In this document: piece after piece, positions 12,225 through 40,785 of the stretch | Numbering within the stretch: position 1 is the first letter of the stretch | How the letters are laid out: the number at the start of each line of letters is the position of its first letter | Assembly: GCA_016789725.1 (NCBI GenBank) | Contig: JAEUQN010000001.1 | Coordinates: 78,588 to 142,587, forward strand | Source of the DNA: Blastocatellia bacterium | GTDB lineage: Bacteria; Acidobacteriota; Blastocatellia; RBC074 | Reading direction: 5' to 3' | DNA length: 64,000 bases | Made by a program: the position numbers and the translations under genes | The notes under the pieces: model-generated | Seen by the model: only the letters and a program-made list of their open reading frames with translations | Databases searched by the model: none | Told to the model about the DNA's origin: nothing

Positions 12225-12225
12225 C

Positions 12226-25984: not shown

Positions 25985-26434
25985 TTAATATTCAGGGCCA
26001 GCGACGTCAGCCGTTGTGAGTGTCGCCGCCGCTTCCATTGCCAAGTCAGTCAAATCGAGATGCCTCAATTCACCTTCGGAATTGATCACCCAGGCTTGTG
26101 CGTTGAGATACCGCATCTTTTCGTTACCGACTTCAAGGATGATAGCGACTTGTCCCTGTGCGAGCAATTGGCACAGTTCGCCCAACACGTCGGTATCTTC
26201 TTCGGTTTCTAGGTCCCAGCCATTATTCGAGAATCCACTTTCCTTGCTGTCGGACATCAGGAAGCCGACGCGATTCTCCTTTTCGATCAATTCCAGATTG
26301 TGTCGTTCGCAGAATGCTTGGAATGCTTCTGCATCGTTAACTTCAAAGTAATTGGATCGGAATTTTGCTTCGTAATTTGCCATAGGTGATTTTTGCTTCG
26401 AGTTTAGTGGCTGCCTTATCGCTCCGGCATCCAA
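25985..26434 (-). CDS. acidic hypothetical protein (149 aa)
   Basis: Overlaps the relaxase stop by 19 nt. Asp/Glu-rich. Possible DNA-mimic or anti-restriction candidate; this is inference only. Confidence 0.4.
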   Translation of the reverse strand: MDAGAIRQPLNSKQKSPMANYEAKFRSNYFEVNDAEAFQAFCERHNLELIEKENRVGFLMSDSKESGFSNNGWDLETEEDTDVLGELCQLLAQGQVAIILEVGNEKMRYLNAQAWVINSEGELRHLDLTDLAMEAAATLTTADVAGPEY

Positions 26435-28662
26435 TCCACGTCTGCGCGCTGTTCTTGCGCTGGCGTGCGTTCGATGGTTTCCGTGCGTTCGGGGTCGGTT
26501 TGCGATTGCGCTTCAATGCGGCTCATTTGTTCGATTACTTCTCGCTCTTCTTCCCGCTCCATTCCTTTCCGTTCATATTCCCAGCTAAGCTGCTGTTGCG
26601 TTTGCTCTTTGAACTCTTGCACCGCTTCTTTGTCGCGGCCCGCTAAGGTATGAACGTGCTGCAACATCTCTGCCAATGCTTTTGTCTCGTGGCTCGGCTT
26701 GAAATTGAAAAGCCGCTGCGTGTCATTGTAGAGGGATTGTTTGAGGCTCAGCGCGACTTCCTGACCTGCCTTGTCGGTGACGACCATCGTTGTCCGTTCG
26801 CCGCGTTTTTCGATCTGGTCAAGCGCGAAATTCGCACTTCGTTCTTCCCTCGCCACTAACGCCTGCATTCGTAGGTCGTGGTCTGCCAAGGCTCGCCCAA
26901 CATCGTTGCTGCTCATCCTATCCGCCACAATTTCTGCTTTCCGCGCTTCTTTCAGTAGCTCAATATCACGCGTCTCTACTGCAATTCGCGTGATCTCTGC
27001 GTATTCGCTGAACCGCAAGGTCGGGCGAACCGTGTCTTTCTCGCCACTTGCTTGCTGCTGTAAGAAAGTTGTGATGCCCGCCAACGATTCGCGCGTCTGT
27101 GCCAGTCCTTCGGCTTTTCGCTCCAGATAGTCACCAATTCTGGCGACGGGTTCCTTCGCGGCTTCGGCTTTCTCCTGTTTGGCGTATCGAACACTGGGGA
27201 TTACATTCTCAAGGTTGATGTTGCCATTGTAATCAACGTATTTTGCCTGGTGCGCTAAATACTGTGCTTCCCGCAACGCTGACGCATACGATCTTCCTTC
27301 GACCACTTCCTTGTTTTTGCCGTTCTCAAAGCGGTGCAGGTCGTTTTCGTTTCCTTGCAAGCGGGCTTGTGTGAGCAATTGTTGTCCACGCAGCCAGCTT
27401 TGCTGTTTCGCTTCATCGAAGCCGTTCTTCTGCCGCTCGGCTGCCAATGCCAACGCCAAGCGATCTACCTTGCCGCTGCGAATCGCCTCCGTTTTGATCC
27501 AATCCGCTTGCGCCTGAGTAAGTTTGGGAATGACGTGCGCGCCCTCAACCCCCAGCGATTCGCGCCCGACGCTTACTCGCTCCTCGTAGTCGTTAACCTG
27601 TCCTTGTAATTGCTGCGCCTTCGCTTCCAACTGCGACTGAATGGCTTCTTTGTGCAGCGCGTACTTTTGCTCCATCTCTTCTTTCGCTTGCGGTACGGTT
27701 TGCAAATTGGGTTTGATGCCTTCTCTGCGCAGCTTGGCAAAGGCTTCATCATTGATCCGCTTGTCAATGTCATACAGCGAAAGGGGGCGAAGCTCGCCCT
27801 CTACACGAAACTTCCAACGTTCGCCATGATCCTCCAACGAAGCTTGTTGGCGACGTAACGCGTCCAGCTTCGTCTCCTGAAGCAATTGCAGTCCCTTCGC
27901 TTCAGCAAGGTCTTTGGTGATTGCAATGTTGGATTTTGGTTCGCTGGTCTCATATTGCTCGGCTTCTGAGTCAAATCGTTCTGCCCTCAGCAGTGGTTCG
28001 TTGTACTCCGATCTCGGTTGTTGGCTGTCCGTAATCGGAGTCATTGTCTGCGCCACATCGCGCGCAAAACCAACTGACCGCTCATAGTCTGGGTTGCGTT
28101 CTCGAAAAGCGGCTTGCTGTTGGTCGAGTTCGGCTTCGAGGCGCGCCAGAAACGGACTCGGTATGACTACTTTGTCCGCTCCGAATCCTTCCGACTTCGG
28201 CAGCCACCGATAGGGCATTTCGTTGAGCGTCATCTGCTTTCTGTGTTCTGTGTTCTTGTACTCCTTCCAAATCACGACGTGAGTGTGCGGATTGTCGGTA
28301 TTCAGATGAATTCCAGCTACCCATCGCAAATGATCTGCCTTGATTGACTCTCTTGCTTCTTCCATTCCCTGGCGAATTACCTCCCGGAATGCGGCGGTAC
28401 GCTCTTTGTCTGTGGCTCCCATTTTGTCGAAATCCTCCGGGCGCAAGGACAGCACCAGGTGAAAGGTGTCGGCGCGGCTGAGCGTATCTTTTCCGTTCAA
28501 GATGCGATTGGCTTCTTCGACAGAAAGCTTGTCGTGTTCAGCCGAAAAGAGATCGCGGTGCTGCCTCCCTTCGCGGCTTTCATCCCGATCTCGCTCAGAA
28601 ATGTATTTCGTCGGAGACATTGCGGCGCTTTTGGCTTGTGGCGCTCGGATGGAAACTCTCAT
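26416..28662 (-). CDS. Relaxase (MobA/VirD2 family) with long coiled-coil C-terminal extension
   Basis: His-triad motif HLNTDNPHTHVVIW (HxDxxxPHxH). An N-terminal Tyr-containing region SPTKYISERD. 748 aa. Confidence 0.7.
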   Translation of the reverse strand: MRVSIRAPQAKSAAMSPTKYISERDRDESREGRQHRDLFSAEHDKLSVEEANRILNGKDTLSRADTFHLVLSLRPEDFDKMGATDKERTAAFREVIRQGMEEARESIKADHLRWVAGIHLNTDNPHTHVVIWKEYKNTEHRKQMTLNEMPYRWLPKSEGFGADKVVIPSPFLARLEAELDQQQAAFRERNPDYERSVGFARDVAQTMTPITDSQQPRSEYNEPLLRAERFDSEAEQYETSEPKSNIAITKDLAEAKGLQLLQETKLDALRRQQASLEDHGERWKFRVEGELRPLSLYDIDKRINDEAFAKLRREGIKPNLQTVPQAKEEMEQKYALHKEAIQSQLEAKAQQLQGQVNDYEERVSVGRESLGVEGAHVIPKLTQAQADWIKTEAIRSGKVDRLALALAAERQKNGFDEAKQQSWLRGQQLLTQARLQGNENDLHRFENGKNKEVVEGRSYASALREAQYLAHQAKYVDYNGNINLENVIPSVRYAKQEKAEAAKEPVARIGDYLERKAEGLAQTRESLAGITTFLQQQASGEKDTVRPTLRFSEYAEITRIAVETRDIELLKEARKAEIVADRMSSNDVGRALADHDLRMQALVAREERSANFALDQIEKRGERTTMVVTDKAGQEVALSLKQSLYNDTQRLFNFKPSHETKALAEMLQHVHTLAGRDKEAVQEFKEQTQQQLSWEYERKGMEREEEREVIEQMSRIEAQSQTDPERTETIERTPAQEQRADVDWMPER

Positions 28663-28730: not shown

Positions 28731-29339
28731 TTATTTGGGTTCTTCGTTGAGAAGAAGTTTCCGATACTTACTGATTTGGGCTTCGACCTTCTCCAAACCG
28801 GCAGCAAGAATCTTTGGTGCTTCCGGGTCTTTGCCGAGTAAGGCTTGTGTGAGATGGGCCGTTAAGGTTGACTCGCCAGTCATCGCCAACAGAATCTTGC
28901 TGAGGTTGTTGTTCTGTTCGCGCAGGAGTTCAATTTGCGTGAGTAAGCGGGCGTTCTCATCTATGGTTACTTGCAGCGCGATCAAGTCTTTACTGAGCTT
29001 GTCGAATTGAATCCCATTCACATCCTGCGCATGCCTGCTCGATACCTGGATGTGTTCGACAAGCTCGCCGATGATTTCCCCTTTGAGGATCGCGATACTT
29101 TGTGGGGAGTTCGGGTTGAACTTTCCTTCGCGGATATCCTTGTACTCTTCGCCACGTTCTTCGGCCTTGATGCCAAGTTCAATGAGTCTGCGCAGGTATC
29201 GTTGCTCATTGTAGAGCGGCGACTTCCGCTTTTTCTCGTTCAAGTAGGCGCGCTGCTCTTTCTTGAGTCGGAGCGGAATCGGATTACTTTCAAATTCAGA
29301 GGGCTTCTTCTTCTTGAGCAAAGCAGGTTTCGATTTCAT
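28731..29339 (-). CDS. relaxosome accessory protein (MobC-like), 202 aa
   Basis: Lies immediately upstream of the relaxase on the same strand. Basic N-terminus (LRLKKEQRAYLNEKKRK) followed by a coiled coil. Confidence 0.4.
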   Translation of the reverse strand: MKSKPALLKKKKPSEFESNPIPLRLKKEQRAYLNEKKRKSPLYNEQRYLRRLIELGIKAEERGEEYKDIREGKFNPNSPQSIAILKGEIIGELVEHIQVSSRHAQDVNGIQFDKLSKDLIALQVTIDENARLLTQIELLREQNNNLSKILLAMTGESTLTAHLTQALLGKDPEAPKILAAGLEKVEAQISKYRKLLLNEEPK

Positions 29340-29972
29340 ACAATTCGTCGCACCTTTCTGGAAAAATTCGCCGAGGAGGCAAACTGGAAATATCCTTACT
29401 TGTGGAATGAGCTAGACGATTGTGGCTGCGGCAATTAACGTGCCAGATTATACTTGTATAACTTGTTATCGCCGGAAATTTACCTCACGCAATTGGTTGC
29501 AATGTTTCGGCTTACACGCTGTTTCGGAGAACTTTGCGAATTCCTTCCTGCGCCCACCGCCGAAATACCCCAACCATTCCCAAAGAACGAAGACTTGATG
29601 GCATTGTCAGAGGCACGGACGGAAGCACGGCGAAGAGAAAATCCACAGGGGAGAGGCAAAGACGAAGGGGGCAAAGCTCATTCGGCAGACCGTTCAGGTG
29701 GCTCGATGGAGGAAGAACGCTCAAACGGTGATTGACGGATGAAGGACAGTGCTGGCTGTCAACGCGAGGGTGCTTATGGCTCAAGCCGAATTATCAAAGA
29801 GCGAGATGCAGGGACGATGAGGCGCATTCCACTCTGATTTATTCCTGACGTGACATGGAAGCGGGAAGAAAGAGGGAGGGGTTTACGAAAGGAAAAAGAA
29901 AAGGCGGTGATCCGAAGACAACCGCCGAAAGACAAGGAGTATTGAGATGCGAAGAACACAACGATATGAACC

Positions 29973-29981
29973 GTAAAAACC
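29973..29981 (-). promoter_or_regulatory. GT[AG]AAAACC motif instance 1
   Basis: ccGTAAAAACCaa. It lies between the DUF4326 stop and the mobC-like gene. Confidence 0.3.
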
Positions 29982-29987
29982 AAAGCT

Positions 29988-30353
29988 TCACAGTTTGTCA
30001 GTTTCGAGGAGCCAAAGGATGGCCGCCTTGATGATGTCGCAGTGACAAGGTTGCGGGACACACCAGCAAAAAAGGGAAACGGGGTTGCCGTCTTTGACGA
30101 TGCGCGCGATGCGAAAGAGTTCGTCGTAGGCTGCTTGTCCGTTGAGTCGGTCGCAGGGTTGGTGGTTGAGCGCGCGCCAAAGGTCTTGTCGGAAAAGTTG
30201 GATGGCTTGATCACGATTGCCATCTTTTCCGAGGACAAATGGGTTGCCAAGAGGAGAAGCAGACAGGGCAGACATTTTGCGACCGCAGTAAATGTGTTTG
30301 GGGTTATGAGGATTGGGACGTTGGGATTTGCAGTTGTAGATTGAGATAGTCAT
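29988..30353 (-). CDS. DUF4326 domain protein (121 aa)
   Basis: YCGRKMSALSASPLGNPFVLGKDGNRDQAIQLFRQDLW matches the DUF4326 signature (GNPF...G...R..AI..F). GGAGG lies 4 nt upstream of the ATG. Confidence 0.55.
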   Translation of the reverse strand: MTISIYNCKSQRPNPHNPKHIYCGRKMSALSASPLGNPFVLGKDGNRDQAIQLFRQDLWRALNHQPCDRLNGQAAYDELFRIARIVKDGNPVSLFCWCVPQPCHCDIIKAAILWLLETDKL

Positions 30354-30385
30354 GCAGCCTCCGAAAGAACGTGGGAGTACTGGCA

Positions 30386-30394
30386 GTAAAAACC
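30386..30394 (-). promoter_or_regulatory. GT[AG]AAAACC motif instance 2
   Basis: caGTAAAAACCgg. It is 33 nt upstream of the DUF4326 ATG. Confidence 0.4.
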
Positions 30395-30533
30395 GGAGGC
30401 GTGAGAGGAAAGGCGCTGGGGAATAGCGTGCGGAATGCAGAATAAAGAGTGATGCGGTAACGGGGTGTGATTCTGGATGGGCGATTTTGGATTTTGGATT
30501 CGGGGAATCCGAGCAAGCCGCGAATAACTGCTC

Positions 30534-30568
30534 AAAAAAAGAGGCGACCCAACCGAAGCCGGATCGCC
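30534..30568 (-). terminator. Rho-independent terminator (11-bp stem, UUCG tetraloop, U7 tail), copy A
   Basis: The minus-strand transcript reads GGCGAUCCGGC-UUCG-GUUGGGUCGCC-UCUUUUUUU. It is 57 nt downstream of the PEP-CTERM-like gene. Confidence 0.6.
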
Positions 30569-30624
30569 AGTGAAAGAAAGGAGATTATGAAGCAATGGTC
30601 TACCTTCAGTAAAAAACCGAAGGC

Positions 30625-30894
30625 TTATGGACGGTTCCGTTTCTTGAGCAAGGACGCGATGCCAGCAAGACTGGAGCCTAAGAGGAGAAGGCTTACAGAT
30701 TCAGGAACGTTGGCTTGGGGAAGCTTGGCGAAGAACTCTTGTTGATCCAGGTTTCTGTCCGCCGGGGTAATGAGGCCGACACCAGCGGTGGGCGCGTTGG
30801 AGTAAGCAACGGAGCGGTTGAGCCAGGTGTTGGTGTCAGCTCGAGAGAGAAGTGAAAAGAAGGAGAGCAGAGTGAGAATGGTGAACAGTTTCAT
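30625..30894 (-). CDS. small secreted protein with PEP-CTERM-like C-terminus (89 aa)
   Basis: Signal peptide MKLFTILTLLSFFSLLSRA. C-terminus VPESVSLLLLGSSLAGIASLLKKRNRP, i.e. P-E-x followed by a TM segment and a basic cluster. Confidence 0.4.
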   Translation of the reverse strand: MKLFTILTLLSFFSLLSRADTNTWLNRSVAYSNAPTAGVGLITPADRNLDQQEFFAKLPQANVPESVSLLLLGSSLAGIASLLKKRNRP

Positions 30895-31185
30895 GGGAAT
30901 TACTGGTAAGAAAAAGGGCGGCTGAAAACCAAACAAGGAAAGTTGTTTTGACCTGCTTGACGGCTTCAGTGACTGGATCAGACTGGATCAAGGCTTTGGT
31001 AGAAACGAGATTCGCCCATACCAGCTTGCGCCGCCGGGAAAAGGGGCAAGCTTTCGTAGAAGTCGCGGTTGGGCGCGCCGAGACGCCAAAGGGTTTCGGG
31101 TTCCGCCAGCAAGAAGGTGTCATCGTCAACAGGGAAGGTGTTTTGTGGTTCAACCCAGAGATGGAAGCGATCGGGGGGATGTTGG

Positions 31186-31383
31186 TTAGCGGGCATGCGC
31201 GTCACCCCCGAACAAACGATAGGCGATGTCGGATAATTCAACCGAGACACATTCGCTACAGATGACTTCACCGAAATCGGCGTCAACGAAGTGTTTGCCG
31301 CGCGTGACGAGGTGTTCTTCGCCGCAGTTAGGACAGACGTGGGATTGGTTACTGGTCGGGAAAAATTGAATTGAAACGGACAT
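31186..31383 (-). CDS. small zinc-ribbon protein (65 aa)
   Basis: CPNC..17 aa..CSEC. Confidence 0.35.
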   Translation of the reverse strand: MSVSIQFFPTSNQSHVCPNCGEEHLVTRGKHFVDADFGEVICSECVSVELSDIAYRLFGGDAHAR

Positions 31384-31465
31384 AGTTACTCCTGATGGTG
31401 GATTTGAGATGGCGGATTTTCGAGAGACGAAACCCGAAGCTGTGAAAGACGCTTAGATAGAAACA

Positions 31466-31474
31466 GTAAAAACC
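31466..31474 (-). promoter_or_regulatory. GT[AG]AAAACC motif instance 3
   Basis: caGTAAAAACCgg. It is ~83 nt upstream of the Zn-ribbon gene. Confidence 0.4.
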
Positions 31475-31585
31475 GGAAACGTGATTGGGAGGGGGCTTGC
31501 TTGAGTAGGAAGAGTGACGAGGTTGTGTTTGGCAGGCAAGGTAATGACGTTGCGTGTCAGGTATGAGTCCTTCTGGTTGGAATGC

Positions 31586-32452
31586 TCAATAGTGTTCGTG
31601 GAGGGTGGCTTCGATCAGAGCGAAGTTATCCATCGTCTTCAGGTGCAAGATAGCCTTAATGTGTGCGAAGAAGAATTTGACAGGTTTGCCGGCTTCGAGC
31701 AGCGAACGGGTCAAGTCGAGGGTATCGTCGTGTTTTGCGGGACGGCGAAATGCAACGTGATTCGTCTCGTCGTAGAGCGCAAGCCCGAAGTTCGCACTGG
31801 AACAGGCGGCTTGCTTGGTGGCCACGAAGAAGTCTGCTCCAAATTCCGCTGGCACAGGTACGGTCGTGAAGTTCCCGTGATTGATGAGCGCTCTATCCCC
31901 AACGTGATAGAGCGCCACTTCTGGGTAGCGTTCGTCGGCGATGAAGAGTTGGATGCGCGAACTGAAGCCTGCCTCATCAGTAAGCAGAAAACGGCCTTCC
32001 TGGTTGATGATGGTGGCGAGTGTCATTGCGATTCGCAAGGGAAGTTGGGTGATGGTCGGACTACCAAAACAGAAGACATTCATTGCTTTCGCCTTACGGA
32101 ACAGAACAGCGGCGAAGAAGTCGCCGCGCGTTCCATTGATCCAGATGTCCCAGCCGCGCCGTTGGTATTGTTCGATGAGTGGTGGGAGAGCGTCTTGAGA
32201 AGTGGCGTTGATGTACAAGTGATCGTATCCGGGTTCCAAGTCCCAGGGATGTCCGGCATTGATGTCAAGGTCTTGTTGGATCAGCGCTTCCTCTGAATCT
32301 CCCTTGGTTGCTCTGTGCGAGCGTCTTCGTGCTGGGTGCGGTTTAGAAAATGATGAGTTAGGAATTGGCAACTCCCTCCTGTTCCATGAAGGCTTGCAGT
32401 GGCCTGATGACTTGTGGATTGATGTCGCGCCGCTCGCGGATTTCTTGCGCAA
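31586..32452 (-). CDS. hypothetical protein (start uncertain, probably internal)
   Basis: The C-terminal ~200 aa look protein-like. The N-terminal part of the ORF overlaps the upstream 117-aa gene and looks non-coding. Confidence 0.4.
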   Translation of the reverse strand: MRKKSASGATSIHKSSGHCKPSWNRRELPIPNSSFSKPHPARRRSHRATKGDSEEALIQQDLDINAGHPWDLEPGYDHLYINATSQDALPPLIEQYQRRGWDIWINGTRGDFFAAVLFRKAKAMNVFCFGSPTITQLPLRIAMTLATIINQEGRFLLTDEAGFSSRIQLFIADERYPEVALYHVGDRALINHGNFTTVPVPAEFGADFFVATKQAACSSANFGLALYDETNHVAFRRPAKHDDTLDLTRSLLEAGKPVKFFFAHIKAILHLKTMDNFALIEATLHEHY

Positions 32453-32711
32453 TGATCTTGGTGATTTGCGCTTCGTCAGGTGTTGCGGAGGGAAGCGGGG
32501 CGAAGAACGAATCTGCGATGTCCGGGCGGGACAGTGAGAAATCAGGGAATCGCTCTTGATAAAGAGTGAGCCGTTGCGCTACAAGACTGTATTCGTGCGC
32601 GAGGAATGTATCGCGTTCGTGCTGGGTACGCGTGAAGTGGGACTTGTAGTAAGCGGACTTCAGCGTAAGGAATGCCAGAATCGTAAAGAGATCAGACGGT
32701 TGCAGTTGCAT
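32358..32711 (-). CDS. hypothetical protein (117 aa)
   Basis: Intact ORF. Its start overlaps the GGDEF gene's stop by 20 nt. Confidence 0.4.
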   Translation of the reverse strand: MQLQPSDLFTILAFLTLKSAYYKSHFTRTQHERDTFLAHEYSLVAQRLTLYQERFPDFSLSRPDIADSFFAPLPSATPDEAQITKIIAQEIRERRDINPQVIRPLQAFMEQEGVANS

Positions 32712-33228
32712 AAAGAGACTCCTGCTTACGTTGTTGTTTGCGGAAATACATCGCGTCGTCCGCGTCGCTCAGGGAACAGCCGATACCACCAGAGATGCAA
32801 ACGCCAAGCCGTTGGACTTCCGGGACGTGGGCAATCAATTGATCAAAGCGGATTTCCGCCCTGCGGCGAAACGCCTCGGCGATTTCCTTTGGCACCAAGC
32901 AAACAAATTCGTCGCCGCCCAACCGAAAGACACGACGACAATGAAATTCAGCCGCAGTACAAGCCAGTGATTCCGCGACAGTACGCAACAAGCCATCGCC
33001 CGTTTTGTGTCCGAGCGTGTCATTGACGGCCTTGAATGAGTTCACGTCAAAGAGGACAACGACGAATCCTTCAGCGAAAGCGGCGGGAAAAGCAGCTTCG
33101 AGTGCGCGGCGATTGCCGATTTGGGTCAGAGGATCGGTATAGGCTGCCTGGATGGCGTTCTTGCGGCGCTCGGCCAGTTCAGGGGAAATGAAATCCGCAA
33201 TGCGAGCTCGTGTTTGATCGAGAATCAT
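32692..33228 (-). CDS. standalone GGDEF-domain diguanylate cyclase (~178 aa; start at MILDQTR)
   Basis: RLGGDEFVCLV with an intact GGDEF motif. DVNSFKAVNDTLGHKTGD is present. No sensor domain. Confidence 0.6.
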   Translation of the reverse strand: MILDQTRARIADFISPELAERRKNAIQAAYTDPLTQIGNRRALEAAFPAAFAEGFVVVLFDVNSFKAVNDTLGHKTGDGLLRTVAESLACTAAEFHCRRVFRLGGDEFVCLVPKEIAEAFRRRAEIRFDQLIAHVPEVQRLGVCISGGIGCSLSDADDAMYFRKQQRKQESLYATATV

Positions 33229-33287
33229 GTTGTAACTCTTTCGGCATAGAGAACGAGTTGTTCGGCCGTGGCAGTGGGGTACGGGCG

Positions 33288-33296
33288 GTAAAAACC
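33288..33296 (-). promoter_or_regulatory. GT[AG]AAAACC motif instance 4
   Basis: cgGTAAAAACCgg. It is ~60 nt upstream of the GGDEF start. Confidence 0.4.
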
Positions 33297-33489
33297 GGGC
33301 GCATCGCGCGCAAATCAAATGGCAAAGGGCAGAAAGCAGAAGGGAGACATGGTGTTGTTTGCCTTATTGTGAGGCGGGGATTGCGGAGGGCGGAATGAGG
33401 AAGAATTGTCTGTGAAACAGAAAGGGCGACCGCGTGGGAAAGGGACAGCCGCCCAAGAGGGGGTACGAAATGTTAGATCATTGCTTGTG

Positions 33490-33798
33490 TTAGTTGCGCG
33501 TGAGGTTGGCCGAGAGCCGCGCGATGGCGTCATCGGACATCTCGCTGGCAGCGTTCAAGACGTCGGTGAAGGAGAAGTCGGCTCTGACGTAGGAGGTGGT
33601 AGGTGGCTTGCCGGGATCAGTGACTTGAACGACGGCAAGTCCGAGCCAATAAGGATCAAGAAGGATCACTTCCTCAGAGGGCGTTGTGATGGTTTCGCCT
33701 GCTTGAAACAATCGAACCGAGCAGTGGCTATGACAACGATTCAGTTGGACGGGCAGCCCGGCCAACAGGGCGTGCAGTACGGTCTGCGCTTTGGACAT
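33490..33798 (-). CDS. hypothetical protein (102 aa)
   Basis: Intact ORF co-oriented with its neighbours. Confidence 0.3.
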   Translation of the reverse strand: MSKAQTVLHALLAGLPVQLNRCHSHCSVRLFQAGETITTPSEEVILLDPYWLGLAVVQVTDPGKPPTTSYVRADFSFTDVLNAASEMSDDAIARLSANLTRN

Positions 33799-33840
33799 TG
33801 AAACTCCAGATTGATAGTGGTGGTTGGAAAGGGAAGGGAA

Positions 33841-34152
33841 TTAGCCGACGCGACGTCCGCCGCATGTGTCGGGATGATTGCGGACAACCATACCTTTTGC
33901 CTCAATCCAGGCCTGGGCTTCTTCGTCGGTCAGATTGTTGCCATCGTTGCTTGTCAGCGTCTGGAACAAATTGGTAGCCAGAAAAATTTCGCCGTTGTGA
34001 AGCGTGATGTAGAAGTCCCCTGGAAATTTGGGTGTGGATTCAATGGACGCGACTTGCTGGCGGGTGATTTCCCAACAGTTGCCAGTCGGGGAATAGAGGC
34101 CGACGACCCTGGTTTGCAATGCGAAGCTGATAGGAGGGGGTGAGTTCTGCAT
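33841..34152 (-). CDS. hypothetical protein (103 aa)
   Basis: Intact ORF co-oriented with its neighbours. Confidence 0.35.
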   Translation of the reverse strand: MQNSPPPISFALQTRVVGLYSPTGNCWEITRQQVASIESTPKFPGDFYITLHNGEIFLATNLFQTLTSNDGNNLTDEEAQAWIEAKGMVVRNHPDTCGGRRVG

Positions 34153-34253
34153 ATGAAATTCCTGCGAGAGAATAACGGAAAGTGAACAAAAGAAGAAACC
34201 ACGTTGGATTCTGAATTTAGAGATCTGGAGAAGGCGGTGTCAAAAGCCTTCCG

Positions 34254-34288
34254 AAAAAAAGAGGCGACCCCGCCGAAGCAGGATCGCC
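34254..34288 (-). terminator. Rho-independent terminator, copy B (32/35 nt identical to copy A)
   Basis: The minus-strand transcript reads GGCGAUCCUGC-UUCG-GCGGGGUCGCC-UCUUUUUUU. Confidence 0.6.
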
Positions 34289-35059
34289 GAGAGAAGAACG
34301 CGTGTTTTTTAGGAGAGAGACTTGGGTTCCTGCGCCACGCCAGCGAACCTTGGGCCTGATCACGCTGCCGAACCCCCTGCGGAGACAACCGACTCCGGCT
34401 TGTTCGGTGCGTCTGGTACGCGCGATGGCGCAGGAAGAGGAAGCGCAGAGAGGGGCGGTTTCGGCGCAAAGAAATGTTTCCGAAACGAAATGTCGCCGTG
34501 TGGGAGACGTTGCGCTTTGACAAAGAAGCCACTACGCCGCGCCCATCGTTCCAGCACGACCATCCTTGGGTTGTGTTCTTTGGACAAGTTGGCCTCCATC
34601 GTTGTGGCGTGCCGAGAGGCCGTGGGTGGCCGTCCGGCACGCCGTGCTTGACCGAGCAAACGTGATCGGTCAAGGCCGGGGCACGAGAGCGGGAGTTGGT
34701 GTTGGCTCTCGTTCGGGATAGGGAAGAAAGCACACGGAAACGGTCGGGTTCTGATCGAAGGCTCAGCTTGCGTGGTCGTGCAAGCCAGTCTTGTAGCAAC
34801 AAAGCAACGTCCCCAGTTGATTGTTGCGCCGACCGCTTCCGTCTACGCTCCGCCGTAAGCAGGAGTTAAACTTACAGCAGCGCCGTCAGAGGCAGCGCGG
34901 CTGGCATCGCTTGGAAGACCGCACAAGGCCAGCCGCTTTCGTGGTGGATGTCGTTGAAGGTTGAGAGATGAGTTGCCGTACAGCTTGCCGGAATCCATCT
35001 TGTGTGATTGCTAGTTGGGTTAGAGGCGAATCCAGCCGCCTAGCAATTTCTTATCATCC

Positions 35060-35068
35060 GTAAAAACC
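35060..35068 (-). promoter_or_regulatory. GT[AG]AAAACC motif instance 5
   Basis: ccGTAAAAACCct. It sits at the head of the ORF-less 34.3-35.0 kb segment. Confidence 0.35.
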
Positions 35069-35369
35069 CTACTGGACGGAGATGGTCACGGTGTTGGCGG
35101 GCTTTTCTTGGATGACAATTTCTAGCGGGTAATTTCCCGTCATGACTAGGGAAGTGAGCCTTTTGATTGGGTACGACCCGCGAGAGTGCGTACGACGAAA
35201 ACAATCAGAAACGGGAATGTGAGTAGCGCCACCCCGACGGTGACAAGCACAAGAAAAAGTGCCTGCGCGAGCTGAAGAAGACGATTCATACGAAAAGAAC
35301 AGCCCAGCCAAGGGCGAATCCTGACTGGGCGGTTGTGGTTCCAATGGTTGAAGCGCGAAAGGCTGGGAA

Positions 35370-35777
35370 TTAGCTGCGCGGCACTTTGCCGACAAACTGG
35401 ACGCGGAACGCGTCGAGTCGGTTGGAGTGGTATTCCTGGCCGTCCTGGCCTTCTTTCGTGATGTTGATGGATAAGCGACCATCTTGCACCGCGATCCGGG
35501 AGCCGGGCTTAGCCGCTTGCATCAGCTTGACGACACCCGGATTGCTGGAAACGATTTCGACCCACTGGCCCTTCTCGTTACGTTCGGCTTGTTTGTCATT
35601 CAGCTTTTCGCCTTTGACTGGACGGCGGGTGACGACCCCCAGAAACGCACAGTAACTGTTGCCGTTTTTGTCTTTGCCGAAGTGGATGAGGGATTCTTTG
35701 TTCGTCGGTTGAACGACGGTGACAATTGTGTTGGTGACGTTGAAGGAGGGAAGCGGATTGGTGTTTGCGTTTGCCAT
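35370..35777 (-). CDS. hypothetical OB-fold-like protein (~135 aa; start MANANTNPLP)
   Basis: Protein-like only from the internal Met onward. Adjacent to ssb. OB-fold assignment is tentative. Confidence 0.35.
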   Translation of the reverse strand: MANANTNPLPSFNVTNTIVTVVQPTNKESLIHFGKDKNGNSYCAFLGVVTRRPVKGEKLNDKQAERNEKGQWVEIVSSNPGVVKLMQAAKPGSRIAVQDGRLSINITKEGQDGQEYHSNRLDAFRVQFVGKVPRS

Positions 35778-35859
35778 AGAGAGAGTAGACCTTTCAGTGA
35801 TTTGGTTGTCTTGAAGTGAGGTGAACGCACGCTGCGTTCGGAACAAGGATTTATTCCCT

Positions 35860-35868
35860 GTGAAAACC
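35860..35868 (-). promoter_or_regulatory. GT[AG]AAAACC motif instance 6
   Basis: ctGTGAAAACCac. It is ~85 nt upstream of the 135-aa OB-like gene. Confidence 0.35.
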
Positions 35869-36000
35869 ACGCGCGAAGCGCGCCTTCGGCGTTGGTTGTA
35901 AACGTGCGCAAAACTCTTTTGCAGCAGTGACAGGAATAGAAAAAGCCAGGACGCAGTGAATCCGAATCCTGACTTTTGCGGATGATAGGGAAGGGGGCAC

Positions 36001-36453
36001 CTAGAACGGAATATCCTCTGTATCGTCGGTGCCTTGCAACTCCGGCGCTTGCTCTGTGGCAGGTGCGGCAGTGCTGGTTCCATTGCCGTTTTTGCGGAAC
36101 AGGATTGAGAACTTGGTACCGGTCATGCGAATTTCGTTGTAGACCGTGCCTTCTTTCTCGTTGGCGTTTTCGTACGCATCGGTCGCGTCAATGCGCACCC
36201 GGTCGCCTTTGCCTACGCCGCTCTTGGCGACCGCATTGGCCTGTCCGCCCCAGAAGGTCACGATGCGGACGGAACGACGTTGTTGGTTGCCGCGCACGAC
36301 GTTGCTGATGACTTTCAGGTCAACGACCGCGCGGTCTTCACCGTTGACTTTGACGGTACGAACTTCCGGCGTGACGGCAAGGTTGGCTTCAAAGCTGATC
36401 TGTTGGTAATCGGAGAATTGGCGAGTTGCATTACTGTTGTTGGTTTCTGACAT
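36001..36453 (-). CDS. ssb: single-stranded DNA-binding protein
   Basis: Acidic C-terminal tail ending DDTEDIPF, matching the canonical SSB D-D-D-I-P-F. 150 aa with a Gly/Gln-rich linker. Confidence 0.75.
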   Translation of the reverse strand: MSETNNSNATRQFSDYQQISFEANLAVTPEVRTVKVNGEDRAVVDLKVISNVVRGNQQRRSVRIVTFWGGQANAVAKSGVGKGDRVRIDATDAYENANEKEGTVYNEIRMTGTKFSILFRKNGNGTSTAAPATEQAPELQGTDDTEDIPF

Positions 36454-36577
36454 GGTGGGAAAATCCTTTCAAATGGTTGTGATTGATTCGGGGAAACATA
36501 CAAGGCGGTCTGCACCTGTTATGCCAGTGTCGCTCAAGCGAGGAAGCTTTTTCCTGTCGAGCGATTTTGTATTGCCT

Positions 36578-36586
36578 GTAAAAACC
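36578..36586 (-). promoter_or_regulatory. GT[AG]AAAACC motif instance 7
   Basis: ctGTAAAAACCca. It is ~125 nt upstream of ssb. Confidence 0.4.
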
Positions 36587-36679
36587 CAGAGGCTTTGTGA
36601 GGTGAACTATTGGGAGAAGCTGTGACTTTGGCTTTTGGATTGGGAAGCCATTATGCCGCGACCAACCTCGAATCGAAGC

Positions 36680-37048
36680 TCATTTCACCGCGTACCCCTG
36701 ACGTGCTTGCTGGTACGGACGAATTGCTCTCTGGATCGAATTGAAGACGCGCTCCGAATATCGCTTACGGCGTTCCGTTGCCTTTGTTGCAAACTGCGGA
36801 AAGTCATGCAGGATGTCCGTGATCTGCCCGGCTACCTCTTGCATGCCTGCAAGCTTCAGTATCTGATCGAACCAGAACTGAGGTTTGTACTGATTGACGC
36901 GAACCGTGTGTGCCATCTTGAGCACTGGCTGACTGGCAGCCGTCATGGCAGCTTCCTCTTTGGCGAGAAGTTGATGCAGTTGGTTGAGAACGTAGGCATT
37001 CTCGATGCGATCCTGCCCGGTAACATCCTTGTAACTTGCAGCGTTCAT
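36680..37048 (-). CDS. hypothetical protein (122 aa)
   Basis: Intact ORF with a GT[AG]AAAACC motif 52 nt upstream. Confidence 0.35.
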   Translation of the reverse strand: MNAASYKDVTGQDRIENAYVLNQLHQLLAKEEAAMTAASQPVLKMAHTVRVNQYKPQFWFDQILKLAGMQEVAGQITDILHDFPQFATKATERRKRYSERVFNSIQRAIRPYQQARQGYAVK

Positions 37049-37099
37049 AGCGGTGACTCCTGATCGTGAAATGTTGTTTGAGGCAGTGGGCTATGAACC

Positions 37100-37108
37100 G
37101 TGAAAACC
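37100..37108 (-). promoter_or_regulatory. GT[AG]AAAACC motif instance 8
   Basis: ccGTGAAAACCcg. It is ~52 nt upstream of the 122-aa gene. Confidence 0.4.
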
Positions 37109-37335
37109 CGGCGGCTACGCCGCAACGCAAACGGCAAATCTCAAAATGCAAAAGGGCGGAAGACGGTTTGGGCTTTATTGGGTTTGGGAAATGGGGCGGA
37201 GTGAGGACTTCACGAGATTGGAATAGCAAGCGACAGCGGATTTCGTGTAGGAGCGGGCGGAAAGCGGCTGAACCCTCAGCACATATCGCTTTTCGGGATG
37301 TCCGCTTTCTCTAATTAGCGATGAAGGTCAATGAT

Positions 37336-37668
37336 TCAATCTGCGCGCTTGTCATCATTCCACGCCTGCTCTGCATCCTCGTCGGATTCAAACCGCGCGC
37401 AAGCATCGCATCGTTCGATCACACCGCTTGCCGCACGCAAAACACCGGGTACACCACTGTGCAAGATTTCTTGCGGGTCTTCGCAAAGACAGACAAAGAC
37501 AATCGCAGATTTCGGTTGAACCTCGCCTTGGAGTCTCCATTCAGTGAGGTGTGTTTGCGCGGCGGCTTCGGTCTCGAACTGACGCGCGAAGAAGGGACTG
37601 CTTGTCCACGTTTGGTTGCCGTAGACAAATTCAGTCTCGGAGCCAGTGGTGCGAGTGATGACGTACAT
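37336..37668 (-). CDS. hypothetical protein (110 aa)
   Basis: Intact ORF. Confidence 0.35.
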   Translation of the reverse strand: MYVITRTTGSETEFVYGNQTWTSSPFFARQFETEAAAQTHLTEWRLQGEVQPKSAIVFVCLCEDPQEILHSGVPGVLRAASGVIERCDACARFESDEDAEQAWNDDKRAD

Positions 37669-37683
37669 CCGCTCTTCCTTTCG

Positions 37684-38385
37684 TTATATGGTCTGCAAAA
37701 AGTCACCCGGTTCTTCTTCCGAGAGCGCATCAGCCAGATAGCCCGTTGGGAATTGCGCTTTCAAGTGGGCCGCAACCAAGAGTCGAATGCCTTCTTGGAG
37801 CTGTCGGATTTGCGCTTCGAGTTCGGCGATCTCCGGTGCGATCTCAGCGGCGGCAGCTTGCCACGACGACTGCGCAGCACGACACTCGTTTTGTTGTTCG
37901 GTGATCTGCGCAAGCGCGACAGGAACGTCGTACTGTTCTATCGTGCGGTATTCGTCGGCGAGGATGGCGGCGTATTTGCGAAAGGCTTCGGGCCAAGTGC
38001 TGGCGGAGCGCGCTTCTTCTGCGGCGGCCTCGCGCAACTCGCGCCGACGGCGTTCCTGCGCTTCGTACTGACGGTCTTGCAGGTCGTTTAGTTGTTGGCG
38101 GAGGTCGGTAGCTTCGGCTTGTGCATAGCGCGCGGTATCGTGGAGAGGTTGATAATTTTTACTCATCAGCAGAGCCCTCTTGAAGTTGTTCGTTCGCGGC
38201 ATCCCTTGCACGTTGCGTTTGTAACGTGCGATTTCCTTCGCACCATGAACAGCCCCCATGATTGCGACGGCTTCTATCGTGGCGTTTGGAACCGCGATAG
38301 CGTTTCCGGCGCTCTTTGCCGGAGGCGATGGCTTTGTCGAGTGGCATAAGTTACTCCCAGAGTGAAAAGCAAAGTTTGTCGGCAA
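37684..38385 (-). CDS. coiled-coil hypothetical protein (start uncertain; likely MSKNYQ at 38166)
   Basis: Heptad-like Glu/Arg/Gln/Ala-rich segment. AGAGGG lies 9 nt upstream of the internal Met. Confidence 0.4.
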   Translation of the reverse strand: MPTNFAFHSGSNLCHSTKPSPPAKSAGNAIAVPNATIEAVAIMGAVHGAKEIARYKRNVQGMPRTNNFKRALLMSKNYQPLHDTARYAQAEATDLRQQLNDLQDRQYEAQERRRRELREAAAEEARSASTWPEAFRKYAAILADEYRTIEQYDVPVALAQITEQQNECRAAQSSWQAAAAEIAPEIAELEAQIRQLQEGIRLLVAAHLKAQFPTGYLADALSEEEPGDFLQTI

Positions 38386-38551
38386 CCGCTTCCAGGGCGG
38401 TCTTGAGATTCGTCGCGGCTTCGAACGTGATTCCGTCAGCGATAGTTTCGCGGCGCGTAGTATGGCTGGCGTCTTGCCAGTAGACGTTTAGGAAGTGCGT
38501 CCCGTCAGCGTTTTGATAGATAGCGAATGAGGGTGGTCTTGTATCAGGCAT
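38351..38551 (-). CDS. small hypothetical protein (66 aa)
   Basis: Intact ORF. Confidence 0.3.
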   Translation of the reverse strand: MPDTRPPSFAIYQNADGTHFLNVYWQDASHTTRRETIADGITFEAATNLKTALEAVADKLCFSLWE

Positions 38552-38557
38552 CGGTAA

Positions 38558-39052
38558 TTATCCTTTCTGAAATAGTCCCACTCGCAAGGCGGGGTAGTTG
38601 GCGGCGAAACGCTCAATGCCTCGTTCGTATTCCGCCCAATTTCCTCCGGCGAGGCCACAGCCAATCCCGAATGGCAACGCGACCGACGTGATGCCTTCGA
38701 TCTTGCCCACCAGCATCAACGCATACTTGAATGCGCCCAGCCGATGCCGTGTGTTGTCGGTGTTGCGCGGATCGGGATTTGGCTTGCCCGGCGCAATCTG
38801 CCCGTACAAATTGATGACGGGATCGTGAACGGAAATCCGTGCGTACTGGTCGCGGTGGTTGAGCTTGTCCGTGCGCTCGGTATAGACATTGGCCTGTGGA
38901 TACTTAGCGAAGATGGCTGCCGCCACGCCCTTCGCATACGTCGAAAGGCAATTCGTTTGATGGCAGATGTATTGGAAGCTGTAGTTGTCCACGGCGCGCA
39001 ACAAATCGTCGTGGATGATTTCGAGATTTGACAGTGTGGACTTTGTGGTCAT
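38558..39052 (-). CDS. macro-domain (ADP-ribose binding/processing) protein
   Basis: ICHQTNCLSTYAKGVAAAIFAKYP resembles the macro NAAN...GGGV..AI motif. SVALPFGIGCGLAGGNW resembles the second Gly-rich macro motif. Confidence 0.55.
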   Translation of the reverse strand: MTTKSTLSNLEIIHDDLLRAVDNYSFQYICHQTNCLSTYAKGVAAAIFAKYPQANVYTERTDKLNHRDQYARISVHDPVINLYGQIAPGKPNPDPRNTDNTRHRLGAFKYALMLVGKIEGITSVALPFGIGCGLAGGNWAEYERGIERFAANYPALRVGLFQKG

Positions 39053-39110
39053 AGTGTTTCCTGAATGACAGGCAACAGATTACAAGCAGAATGATCAAGC
39101 ACCATTCCAT

Positions 39111-40763
39111 TTATCGTTCTGACCTCCGCGCTTCAATCAGCTTTCTCTTCAACCCTGTGTGGCGTATCGGCACGCGCTTGATCGCATCAAAGAAGGCTTT
39201 CTTCTGGCCAACGAAGACGACGTGCTTCTCAGCGCGGGTCATCGCCGTGTAGACCAGCGCGCGAATCAACATCCGGCTCATGGAGCTATGAATCGGAATG
39301 ACCACACACGGCCACTGAGAGCCTTGCGATTTGTGGATCGTGATCGCAAACGCATACAGCAATTGATTCCAGGTGTCAGTGGAGTAGTGGACGCGCTTGC
39401 CTTTCTCGAATTTGACTTCCAGCGCATCACCGACAGCGTGCTTCACTTCTCCAACTTCACCATTCATCACACCCAACTTGCGGTTGTTCTTGGTGTGAAT
39501 CACTTTGTCGCCTGTGCGGAAGTTCAACGAGCCAGCAACCGACGTGCCGCCATCCCCGATGCCGCGCAAGATGTCATTCAAGTTGTTTGTTCCTACCGTG
39601 CCTTTCTTCATCGGCACGAGACATTGAATCTGGCTGATCGGATCGTAGCCAAGCCGTTTCGGTAACGATTGGTTGATGATGAGCGGCATCATCTTCGCAA
39701 TCTCCTCGGCAGACTCGATTTCGATGAAGTACGAATCCGATTTCTCCGCGCCCGGTTTCGCAAAGCGAATATCATCATAGCGGCCTTCCCGGATTGCGGC
39801 GGCGTTGCGTGCAACCCAACTCGATTCGTCCTGCCGAAACACTTTCGTGAGTCGAACGATTGCGACCGCTTTGCTTTCAATGAGGTCTTTGAGCACTTGC
39901 CCCGCATCCACCGAGGCCAATTGTTCAGGATCACCGACGATGATGAGCCGGGTGCGCGACGTGCATGCCAGACAAAGCTGCGCCATCATCCACGTGTCCA
40001 CCATTGAGAACTCATCCACGATCAGCACATCGCCAACGACTGGAAAGAGGAAGTTCCAAACGTATTTCTTGACCGCGCCGCAGTAGTACATCAAGCGATG
40101 GAGTGTTTCCGCGGATCGTCCCGTCGCTTCCGCCATGCGCTGGGAAGCGCGCCCTGTCGGTGCGGCGCAATGCACCAACAAGCCTTGCTGCCGAAACAAT
40201 TCGAGGATCGCATTCACCGTCGTCGTCTTGCCTGTGCCCGGATAGCCTGCCAGGATCAAAACGCCTTCGGCTGCCGCCGCGCGTACCGCCTCTTGTTGCT
40301 CGTCGGAAAGTGGTTTGTTGTAGGTGCGAAGAAACGCTTCGACAGTGGCGGCTTCAATCGGTTTGCAATTCCTACCAATGGACTTCAACCGCTCCGCGAT
40401 CATCGTTTCGGTTTGGAAGGTGGCGGGTGTGAAAATGTAGTTGTCCGTGTCTCGCACCAACTCGCCGCGTGCGATCACTTCCTCCAGCGATGCTTGCACG
40501 TCTTCTGGTTTGGCGGCATAGCGGGCGCATAGTTCGGCGACCAGCTTGTCTTGTGGAAAACATGTATGGCCTTCCTTCCGGGCGCGGTCTAAGGCTTCGA
40601 GGAAACGAGTAGTGTGGGGATGAACCGGAAGGGGGGTGCGAAGCAGCGAGTAAAGCTGCAACAGCCGGGCAATGAACGCGACGGCTAAGACTGCTTTCAG
40701 CTTGTGTGGTTGTATCCGAATTCGCATGATAGCAACTCCTGATGAATGACTTTCCACGATCAT
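39111..40763 (-). CDS. RecD-like SF1 DNA helicase (plasmid TraA / Dda-like)
   Basis: Walker A LAGYPGTGKTT. VLIVDEFSMVD. IIVGDPEQLASV. TIHKSQGSQW. YTAMTRAEKHVVFVG. The true start may be Met13 at 40727. Confidence 0.7.
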   Translation of the reverse strand: MIVESHSSGVAIMRIRIQPHKLKAVLAVAFIARLLQLYSLLRTPLPVHPHTTRFLEALDRARKEGHTCFPQDKLVAELCARYAAKPEDVQASLEEVIARGELVRDTDNYIFTPATFQTETMIAERLKSIGRNCKPIEAATVEAFLRTYNKPLSDEQQEAVRAAAAEGVLILAGYPGTGKTTTVNAILELFRQQGLLVHCAAPTGRASQRMAEATGRSAETLHRLMYYCGAVKKYVWNFLFPVVGDVLIVDEFSMVDTWMMAQLCLACTSRTRLIIVGDPEQLASVDAGQVLKDLIESKAVAIVRLTKVFRQDESSWVARNAAAIREGRYDDIRFAKPGAEKSDSYFIEIESAEEIAKMMPLIINQSLPKRLGYDPISQIQCLVPMKKGTVGTNNLNDILRGIGDGGTSVAGSLNFRTGDKVIHTKNNRKLGVMNGEVGEVKHAVGDALEVKFEKGKRVHYSTDTWNQLLYAFAITIHKSQGSQWPCVVIPIHSSMSRMLIRALVYTAMTRAEKHVVFVGQKKAFFDAIKRVPIRHTGLKRKLIEARRSER

Positions 40764-40776
40764 TTTTTTACTGACG

Positions 40777-40785
40777 GTGAAAACC
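40777..40785 (-). promoter_or_regulatory. GT[AG]AAAACC motif instance 9
   Basis: cgGTGAAAACCga. It is 14-50 nt upstream of the RecD-like helicase start. Confidence 0.4.

Follow-up and report, generated by a model that had tools for sequence, protein, structure and literature searches.

A compact, co-oriented motif heads the gene units of a putative leading region in a Blastocatellia conjugative element and is a candidate core promoter

What is a short sequence doing that recurs, always in the same orientation, ahead of one gene unit after another within a single block of a mobile element? The question is raised by a 64,000-nucleotide (nt) stretch of the genome of a Blastocatellia bacterium (assembly GCA_016789725.1, contig JAEUQN010000001.1, positions 78,588 to 142,587), which we call the window and in whose coordinates all features are given. 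The window contains the right-hand 41 kb of an integrated conjugative element. Directly upstream of the element's MobL/MobP-like relaxase gene (26416-28662, minus strand), and co-directional with it, lies a 12-kb block of co-oriented genes (28731-40727, minus strand) that ends at a 202-amino-acid (aa) gene adjoining the relaxase. Ten copies of one 25-nt motif serve this block. We hold with moderate confidence that the motif is the core promoter of a single regulon, one that would make up the relaxase-proximal leading or establishment block of the element.

The repeat had first been described as a 9-mer, GTRAAAACC on the plus strand. All nine plus-strand occurrences reported by the first-pass annotation are present, and so is the degenerate copy it placed at 30609 (GTAAAAAACC). 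The window has 12 occurrences of the 9-mer where 0.94 would be expected, a count that none of 100 shuffles reached. As far as the 9-mer is concerned, the claim that the rest of the window holds no copy does not stand, since GTGAAAACC is also found outside the block at 14989 (plus), 58213 (plus) and 54564 (minus). Three occurrences against about 0.8 expected in roughly 53 kb are a modest excess over chance; none of the three carries the 25-nt extension, and they are consistent with chance occurrences.

What the ten block copies share, and what they alone share, is a 25-nt motif on the minus (coding) strand, GGTTTTYAC-nG-N4-TA-N6-YG. Allowing at most one mismatch, this pattern has 10 matches in the window where 0.09 are expected, and again no shuffle out of 100 reached the observed number. 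All ten matches are on the minus strand between 29957 and 40785, that is within about 11 kb. A weight matrix built from the ten sites separates them cleanly from everything else: their own scores range from 24.7 to 29.9 bits and every other window position, on either strand, stays below 12 bits, so the scores are bimodal. Nothing resembling the extended pattern is present in the rest of the window.

The anatomy of the motif is that of spaced single positions. With the invariant 3' G of the motif numbered +1, an alignment of 18 sites shows G-24, T-21, T-19, A-17, C-16, G-14, T-9 and A-8 to be invariant and the N positions to be random. Y-1 is present in 17 of the 18 sites and G+1 in 16, and the TA at -9/-8 mostly has a purine before it. 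In the same profile the motif is asymmetric and single at each site, with no dyad, palindrome or tandem subsites.

Each copy is intergenic and points in the same direction as the unit downstream of it. Start codons with a ribosome-binding site (RBS) follow about 16 to 110 nt past the conserved G: at +18 for a DUF4326 gene, +35 for a RecD-like gene, +37 for a 122-aa gene, +68 for a Zn-ribbon gene and +110 for an SSB gene. Two further starts, judged by eye, lie at about +44 (GGDEF) and about +67 (OB-like). The block's first signal is copy 1 (40761-40785; GGTTTTCACCGTCAGTAAAAAAATG; this and all other copies are on the minus strand), which is followed by an RBS and the ATG at 40727 of a RecD-like helicase gene (40727-39111; Pfam AAA_30/UvrD_C_2/SH3_13). 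Copy 2 (37084-37108) stands before the 122-aa gene (37048-36680), copy 3 (36562-36586) before an SSB-like 150-aa gene (36453-36001) and copy 4 (35844-35868) before an OB/SSB-like 135-aa gene (35777-35370). Copy 6 (33272-33296) precedes the stand-alone GGDEF gene (33228-32692), behind which come a 117-aa and a 261-aa gene. Copy 7 (31450-31474) precedes a 65-aa Zn-ribbon gene (31383-31186) in a unit that extends to an 89-aa PEP-CTERM-like gene (30894-30625), and copy 9 (30370-30394) lies 16 nt ahead of the RBS/ATG region of the DUF4326 gene (30353-29988). Gapless, dense gene runs follow the RecD, GGDEF and Zn-ribbon genes. Hence, the ten copies head about ten transcription units that together cover the whole block.

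The remaining three copies have no gene directly behind them. It had been reported that every copy lies 14-125 nt upstream of a minus-strand gene start, and this holds for seven copies and not for those at 30609, 29973 and 35060. Behind the first two, copy 8 (30593-30617; the variant GTTTTTTAC, 8 nt past the upstream stop codon) and copy 10 (29957-29981, 7 nt past the DUF4326 stop codon), come a short leader and an intrinsic terminator and no credible open reading frame (ORF). These two copies head units that resemble small RNAs (sRNAs). One of the genes originally listed is in fact such an sRNA-like unit, the 81-aa "Zn-ribbon" ORF with its TTG start beginning within the motif itself. The third, copy 5 (35044-35068), is followed by about 790 nt in which no gene is called and no ORF is credible, up to a terminator at 34288-34254.

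Is the motif kept by selection? The element family is rare: among 5.8 billion clusters the RecD-like protein has four close relatives and the relaxase two, and the relatives are binned to Blastocatellia and Pyrinomonadaceae. In the few that were found the motif recurs in the same orientation. Four loci with 92-96% nucleotide identity (L001, L004, L045, L046) carry it at orthologous sites, and a 93% relative sits on the 239-kb JGI contig Ga0183872_10537280. A Blastocatellia element from a metagenome-assembled genome (L002, L005, L047), is about 75% identical in nucleotides (RecD 79% and relaxase 63% identical in amino acids) and has 11 copies (10 in L047, one in L002), all oriented with the genes, some of them ahead of genes that have no orthologue in the window. 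Copy by copy, copy 1 is conserved in L001, L004 and L002 and has a variant form in L003, and copies 2 and 3 are conserved at the orthologous places in L001 and L004. The L047 orthologue of the OB/SSB-like gene behind copy 4 is preceded by a motif copy at 3213. Copies also precede the orthologues of the genes behind copy 6 (in L045, L046 and L047) and behind copies 7 and 9 (in L045 and L047 for each). Copy 10 has, together with its leader, an orthologous form in L045 and L046 and two in L047.

The most distant relative, L003 (RecD-like protein 50% identical in amino acids), has GCTTTYYC-N4-YCC-TA-N6-TG at four sites plus one offset by 1 nt, ahead of RecD, macro-NADAR, DUF4326 and PEP-CTERM genes; this pattern was drawn from those same sites, and its chance statistic is therefore inflated. 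Comparing lineages, the architecture and the TA-N6-YG part stay and the upstream specificity positions change. The control searches came out clean. Control loci totalling about 240 kb contain no copy; in the surroundings of 35 distant DUF4326 genes (168 kb) no site reaches 15 bits; the four loci of more distant MobL relaxases (L006-L009) have no motif, and the 44 unrelated loci among the 51 fetched have no exact match. A scan of IMG/VR for motif plus leader gave one chance-level match, in coding-like sequence, and a metagenome scan with the RecD alignment gave nothing.

The relatives also show where conservation begins. We compared seven orthologous upstream regions between the window and the relative of about 75% identity, ungapped and with the motif as anchor. 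Of the 21 bins of 20 nt that lie upstream of it, 18 have an identity of 0.2-0.5, which is near background. The specified motif positions are conserved in nearly all pairs, and in three pairs identity is 0.6-0.8 over the first 20 nt past the motif. In the case of RecD, the window and L002 become homologous in nucleotides 8 nt ahead of the motif. The motif is thus the 5' boundary of conservation, as predicted by a promoter followed by a transcribed leader.

If the motif is a promoter, how would it work? The 11-bp GGTTTTYAC-nG at -24 to -14 would be an upstream specificity element, RTA at -10 to -8 a minimal melting or positioning element, and Y-1/G+1 the start, so that transcription would probably begin at or near the G. 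Three outcomes can be envisaged: a leader of 16-110 nt followed by RBS and gene, a terminated sRNA-like RNA of about 60 nt, or an attenuator made of leader, terminator, RBS and gene. A dedicated factor would probably be required. The geometry is not that of sigma70 or sigma54, the upstream element varies between lineages while TA-N6-YG stays, and no copy of the motif accompanies the transfer, relaxase or cargo genes; all this points to a specificity factor that co-evolves with the element. Such a factor might be encoded by the element or delivered with the DNA and would not be a host housekeeping sigma alone; its gene could lie in the left part of the element, beyond the window, or in the host. 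Expression would presumably come early, in the recipient.

The known promoter classes do not provide this geometry. For sigma70 we searched for TTGACA-like and TATAAT-like hexamers 16-18 bp apart; pairs with 9/12 matches number six in the block where 7.2 are expected, and only one of the ten copies is overlapped. In the 18-site profile the columns of -35 and -10 are unconserved and the equivalent of T-7 is not a T, and an extended -10 geometry is ruled out on the same profile. Sigma54 promoters have GG and GC exactly 10 bp apart (TGGCAC-N5-TTGC). In the motif no GC lies 10 bp past the GG at -24/-23, and the columns 10-12 bp after it are unconserved. The suggestion of the first-pass annotation that this is a dedicated non-sigma70 promoter is thus still the best reading of a signal that is block-specific, co-oriented, placed at the 5' edge of units and free of sigma70 geometry, and that is conserved or co-varied in relatives while its flanks differ; its single-strand variant in the Frpo sense, discussed below, was not supported.

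One could also argue that the motif is only an operator. Here the 9-mer would bind a repressor or activator over ten unrelated promoters of the host type and allow a transient burst of expression after transfer, on the model of Reg576 of p576, ArdK of R388 and the KorA/KorB regulons. One motif before many establishment-type operons is indeed what published regulons look like (PMC6294495, PMC8708921), and an upstream element that varies between lineages would suit a co-evolving DNA-binding protein. Nevertheless, we regard this as quite improbable, for the following reasons. First, the motif is asymmetric and occurs once per site, with neither dyad nor tandem subsites. Second, an invariant TA and YG at fixed spacing are features of a core promoter and its start. 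Third, nine of the ten sites have no sigma70 -35/-10 at any fixed or variable offset. Fourth, no repressor gene was identified. An operator of the Reg576/EGeRS2 type was rejected on similar grounds (one asymmetric site per unit and no canonical promoter), and Pfam, PHROGs and NCBIfam find no ribbon-helix-helix (RHH) or helix-turn-helix (HTH) gene in the motif-served units; the 202-aa gene, whose N-terminus looks RHH-like by eye, stands behind a sigma54-like promoter of its own and not behind a motif copy. The EGeRS1 type was rejected as well, since the conserved part is merely 25 nt long and the upstream flanks are unrelated between orthologues.

Alternatively, the signal could act on single-stranded DNA. 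The plus strand reads 5'-CR-N6-TA-N4-C-N-GTRAAAACC-3', and a transferred or host primase or polymerase might start RNA there on the incoming strand, making the motif a hairpin-less single-strand promoter or a priming site. In plasmid leading regions the transferred strand is the template for the genes (PMC11541004). All block genes are transcribed toward the relaxase, which is the arrangement reported for leading regions; hence our designation of the block as a leading region, which is an inference, and hence the point that, co-directional with the relaxase, the block genes would have the presumed transferred strand as template under the rule in PMC11541004. Frpo RNAs are reported to act as mRNA and also as primer (cited in PMC11541004). 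There is also a strand asymmetry: from 30001 to 36000 the plus strand has an unusually strong positive GC skew of 0.15-0.26 (more G than C), so that the coding strand is C-rich, the reverse of the usual transcription-associated skew. This skew is compatible with a plus strand that is often single-stranded, as the transferred strand would be.

The structure of the motif speaks differently. Folding the template strand 120 nt to either side of the ten copies yields no common Frpo-like hairpin; the pairing that involves the motif differs from site to site, folding z-scores are mostly between -1.7 and +0.8, and the complement of GTRAAAACC is absent nearby on the same strand. A single-strand promoter in the Frpo sense, which the first-pass annotation had offered as an option, therefore finds neither a consistent hairpin on the presumed transferred strand nor duplex -35/-10 elements. 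No bacterial RNA polymerase is known to read a linear single-stranded promoter, the identity of the transferred strand is itself only presumed, and the RBS-led genes and terminators point to ordinary transcription units. We thus consider a single-strand signal very improbable.

The terminators are the second conspicuous feature of the block. Counting all lineages, a strong intrinsic terminator follows 8 of 23 sites, and its T-run starts at +53 (three sites), +55 (two), +57 (two) or +65 (one). Each leader-terminator unit folds by itself into a strong terminator. Terminators at a near-fixed distance fit discrete RNAs with their 5' end at the motif. In the window, copies 30617 and 29981 are each followed by a CU-rich stretch of 25-31 nt (AUCUCCUUUCUUUC or UACUCCUUGUCUUUC), then by a hairpin of 8-11 bp that is rich in GC, and finally by a U-run. 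In the first sRNA-like unit (30534-30592, minus strand) the CU-rich leader is AUCUCCUUUCUUUC; the hairpin, of 11 bp, lies at 30568-30543, and the T-run begins at +53. The second (29892-29956, minus strand) has the leader GUUCUUCGCAUCUCAAUACUCCUUGUCUUUC, a hairpin at 29926-29903 and a T-run from +57, and the first 20 nt of its leader are 80% identical to L047:11765. Both units are about 60 nt long and have CUCCU, an anti-Shine-Dalgarno-like seed, in the 5' CU-rich stretch ahead of the strong terminator. Standing alone as they do, they look like classical sRNAs made of a 5' seed and a terminator. We rejected a type I toxin as the partner of these units; the ORFs on the opposite strand encode 9-52 aa, are basic and not hydrophobic, and are unconvincing.

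Homologous units in L005 and L047 lie directly ahead of RBS-led genes (75-aa, NADAR and 88-aa), and their CUCCU stretch could pair with the downstream Shine-Dalgarno sequence. Units of L005 and L003 have the U-run immediately before the RBS of the following gene, so they have the predicted layout of attenuators, that is promoter, leader, terminator and gene.

The same terminators bring in what we see as the main rival. The motif could be an elongation signal, a pause or loading site of the ops, nut or Q kind, for a processive antiterminator. Transcription would then come from further upstream, or across the joint of the excised circle, and the antiterminator would carry polymerase past the promoter-proximal terminators and down the 12-kb block. 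Several observations suit this idea. The combination of Y-1/G+1 and a purine at -10 is like the consensus elemental pause, and several sites read GG(N)GGTAG, like the ops sequence GGCGGTAG. A strong terminator stands at a near-fixed distance behind eight sites, and where the RBS of the L005 and L003 genes lies directly past the terminator, the gene needs read-through. Five of the terminator-linked sites lie 1-17 nt past a stop codon, too close for a separate promoter to fit in. Nevertheless, no NusG/RfaH-, Q- or N-like gene was found, and a protein of the NusG/KOW type is missing from the window. An ops/RfaH site proper (the 12-nt GGCGGTAGnnTG together with a NusG paralogue) was rejected on the length and spacing of the consensus. 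The 9-mer at -24 to -16 would lie in the duplex DNA behind a paused complex, a part that ops does not use, and the distance between TA and pause position exceeds that of ops by 3 nt. There is no conserved promoter before copy 1, and in three lineages the conservation upstream of RecD starts at the motif. Most copies have no terminator downstream. Taken together, an elongation signal seems unlikely to us.

Returning to the core promoter, several points weigh against it as well. That transcription is initiated at the motif is something we infer from the sequence. The TA is just 8 nt from the proposed start, too close for a -10 element of the sigma70 type, and the 9-mer occupies the position of a sigma70 promoter's spacer. 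To our knowledge no holoenzyme geometry accounts for the motif; its geometry has no precedent that we know of, and this is why our confidence is held at a moderate level. The five copies that follow a stop codon and are themselves followed by a terminator could equally be read as a signal for polymerase arriving from upstream. A search with Pfam, PHROGs and NCBIfam over about 70 ORFs of the window and L002 revealed no sigma factor, RNA polymerase, NusG-like protein or HTH/DNA-binding regulator, and none was found in the element's 41 kb or its relatives. Finally, the comparative depth is small, with three lineages that are all metagenomic.

A bolder version of the promoter reading goes further than we would. 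The motif could represent a new class of hairpin-less, non-sigma70 promoter for the DNA that enters first, with a co-evolving factor that may be delivered with the DNA and a terminator gate at about +55. Read-through would occur only under antitermination or on a template that is not yet duplex, and the terminators would in addition release RNAs of about 60 nt with CUCCU seeds of the anti-Shine-Dalgarno kind. If true, this would be a complete programme of early expression unlike both Frpo and the repressor-timed regulons. We regard the full programme as distinctly unlikely.

The motif copies have also been places of recombination. In the 93% relatives L045 and L046 a stretch of 223 bp (30394-30617; compare L045:4440-4560), which comprises the first sRNA-like unit, is absent. 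The junction lies inside the 9-mer, and the hybrid copy, GGTTCTTAC-TGCCCA-TA-CTCCCA-CG, has the left flank of one copy and the right part of the other. A junction inside the 9-mer indicates recombination between two motif copies, and the putative repeated promoters would thus also serve as crossover points at which cassettes are added or removed. Should the repeats then be seen mainly as crossover points, or cassette boundaries, with no role in expression? The 223-bp cassette missing between copies 30617 and 30394 is what favours this. Other indels between relatives are not bounded by the motif, which makes crossover a side effect and not the function. Moreover, spaced single positions are selectively conserved and the N positions are free, as expected of a signal read by a protein and not of homology tracts, and there is neither a recombinase nor an inverted partner site. 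In the PeSLs of T4-type phages repeated promoters act as cassette crossover points (PMC2839356, PMC4122927), and recombination between repeated promoters is a known by-product (PMC2839356). A boundary function alone is extremely improbable.

Which known systems does the core promoter that we propose resemble? Frpo/ssi are single-strand promoters, reportedly described by Masai and Arai in 1997. Like Frpo/ssi of F-like and IncI plasmids, the motif is a repeated signal before ssb and anti-defence-type genes of a leading region, here a putative one, with genes oriented such that the transferred strand would be the template (PMC11541004). Frpo, however, is an imperfect hairpin of 200-330 nt that rebuilds a duplex sigma70 -35/-10, and the motif has 25 unstructured nt and no sigma70 hexamers. 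With the regulons of p576 and pLS20 it shares that variable, mostly unknown establishment genes are spread over several operons under a common upstream sequence (PMC6294495, PMC8708921). The Reg576 operators of p576 are dual TTATCCC sites (PMC6294495). EGeRS2 combines a strong sigmaA promoter with a dual heptamer operator for an RHH repressor, whereas the motif is single, asymmetric, lacks a canonical promoter and belongs to an Acidobacteria-type element, and EGeRS1 of pLS20 measures 420-750 bp and is GC-rich and highly structured, whereas the motif measures 25 nt (PMC8708921). That a shared upstream sequence can define an establishment regulon is a known idea, as Frpo, the Reg576 operators and EGeRS1/2 illustrate, and the motif is neither a hairpin, nor a sigma70 promoter combined with an operator, nor a long structured region.

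PeSL cassettes are similar in that a conserved promoter, here a promoter-like motif, and a stem-loop flank small variable ORFs, and in that two copies mark the ends of an indel between close relatives, here one of 223 bp (PMC2839356, PMC4122927). PeSLs have early promoters of the sigma70 type, whereas here the terminator follows at +53 to +57 and would yield short RNAs or attenuated leaders.

Phages also have dedicated promoters, such as the 23-bp T7-like promoters and the middle and late promoters of T4. Like these, the motif occurs in many near-identical, oriented and information-rich copies within one element and is composed of an upstream specificity part and a start-proximal part. In contrast to them, there is no gene for a phage-type RNA polymerase or sigma factor in the window, and the spacing of -24 to -14, -9/-8 and +1 matches none of them. 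To ops/RfaH, lambda nut/N and Q/QBE the motif is similar in being oriented, in standing 5' of long acquired operons and before terminators, and in its pause-like Y-G end. It differs from them in lacking a cognate factor gene, in being twice as long as ops, in occurring in ten copies within 11 kb and in marking the start of conservation.

Two features of the block deserve mention beyond the copies themselves. The stretch of about 790 nt behind copy 5 (34254-35044, minus strand) is a candidate for a large non-coding RNA. The homologous stretch in L045, L046 and L047 has no called gene either, and a core of 134 nt in the window (34850-34717) shares 74% identity with L047:5413-5545, part of a stretch that is likewise free of genes and preceded by a motif copy. 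The strong intrinsic terminator at 34254-34288 (minus strand), which is 91% identical to 30534-30568, would end the predicted long transcript of copy 5 (family D5). Rfam has no match for the stretch, and no match for the whole window at gathering thresholds; a permissive search of the block gave chance-level matches only. Directly past this terminator and ahead of a 103-aa gene, at 34214-34243 (minus strand), is TTGACA-18-TAAATT (10/12), the sole good sigma70-like promoter on the block's coding strand, and the unit of the 103-aa gene may be read by the host independently of the motif. The other feature concerns the copies at 33272-33296, 35844-35868 and 37084-37108, which have a small GC hairpin (5-bp stem, 3-nt loop) directly in front of them (33299-33311, 35871-35883 and about 37111-37123, minus strand; GCGCGCTTCGCGC is the hairpin ahead of copy 4). 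In these three copies GGTTTT could at the same time serve the upstream unit as the U-tract of a weak terminator.

A different kind of regulation is expected for the relaxase. The sequence TGGCACGTTAATTGC, which lies at 29431-29445 (minus strand), about 92 nt upstream of the 202-aa gene and the relaxase, matches a sigma54-type promoter perfectly, and TGGCAC-N5-TTGC has no other exact match in the window; L005 keeps it as GGCACGCTAATTGCA. This mob operon would need an enhancer-binding activator and would be regulated apart from the block. With a genuine sigma54 site before the relaxase operon, canonical alternative-sigma promoters are evidently recognisable in this element.

The block itself encodes, besides the RecD-like protein, a macro-like 164-aa protein, two SSB/OB proteins, the stand-alone GGDEF protein, Zn-ribbon, PEP-CTERM-like and DUF4326 proteins and many unknowns. 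Elsewhere in its 41 kb the element carries a VirD4/TraG-type coupling protein gene (1205-3457) and a cargo region (5910-19463, plus strand) for a 2104-aa DEAD helicase with DUF1822, MZB (MrfA Zn-binding) and DUF559 domains, a 1007-aa SNF2 helicase and a 1350-aa Eco57I/N6 methylase, which looks like a defence system of the DISARM-like type. Downstream of the relaxase lies a 1259-aa ORF (19484-23263, minus strand) that is charged, rich in E, R, Q and A and of low complexity. It is conserved in L045 and L046, is 28% identical over 194 aa to the C-terminal part of the L006 relaxase and has no match in Pfam, PHROGs, NCBIfam or PDB. On the other side of the block, homology with the 92% relative L004 stops at about 41268, where L004 goes on into a TonB-dependent receptor gene and the window continues with czc/cus-type efflux and P-type ATPase genes. 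The block is thus the extreme end of the integrated element, and about 41268 is its probable right end, or att junction; the window has no tRNA gene. A megablast search of the block against plasmid and phage collections gave no match, and an attempt to extend the element leftward through one window protein matched 2-kb contigs only.

What would a promoter of this kind mean? Early expression of anti-defence and establishment genes is understood in few models, namely the Frpo hairpins of enterobacteria and the repressor-timed promoters of Bacillus. Here, in a poorly studied host lineage, a whole putative leading block carries one signal, short and rich in information, whose geometry is that of no known promoter. 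The motif would delimit an establishment regulon by sequence, comprising about 25 genes, two sRNA-like RNAs and the candidate non-coding RNA of about 790 nt, and the promoter-proximal terminators and sRNA-like products would belong to its design. It predicts a specificity factor and offers a 25-nt handle, with six to eight invariant bases, on the control of early genes beyond the model systems. If the motif turns out to be an ordinary activator-dependent promoter, it would still be a clean marker of the regulon. If it is read by a non-standard holoenzyme, it would be a new solution to the problem of early expression.

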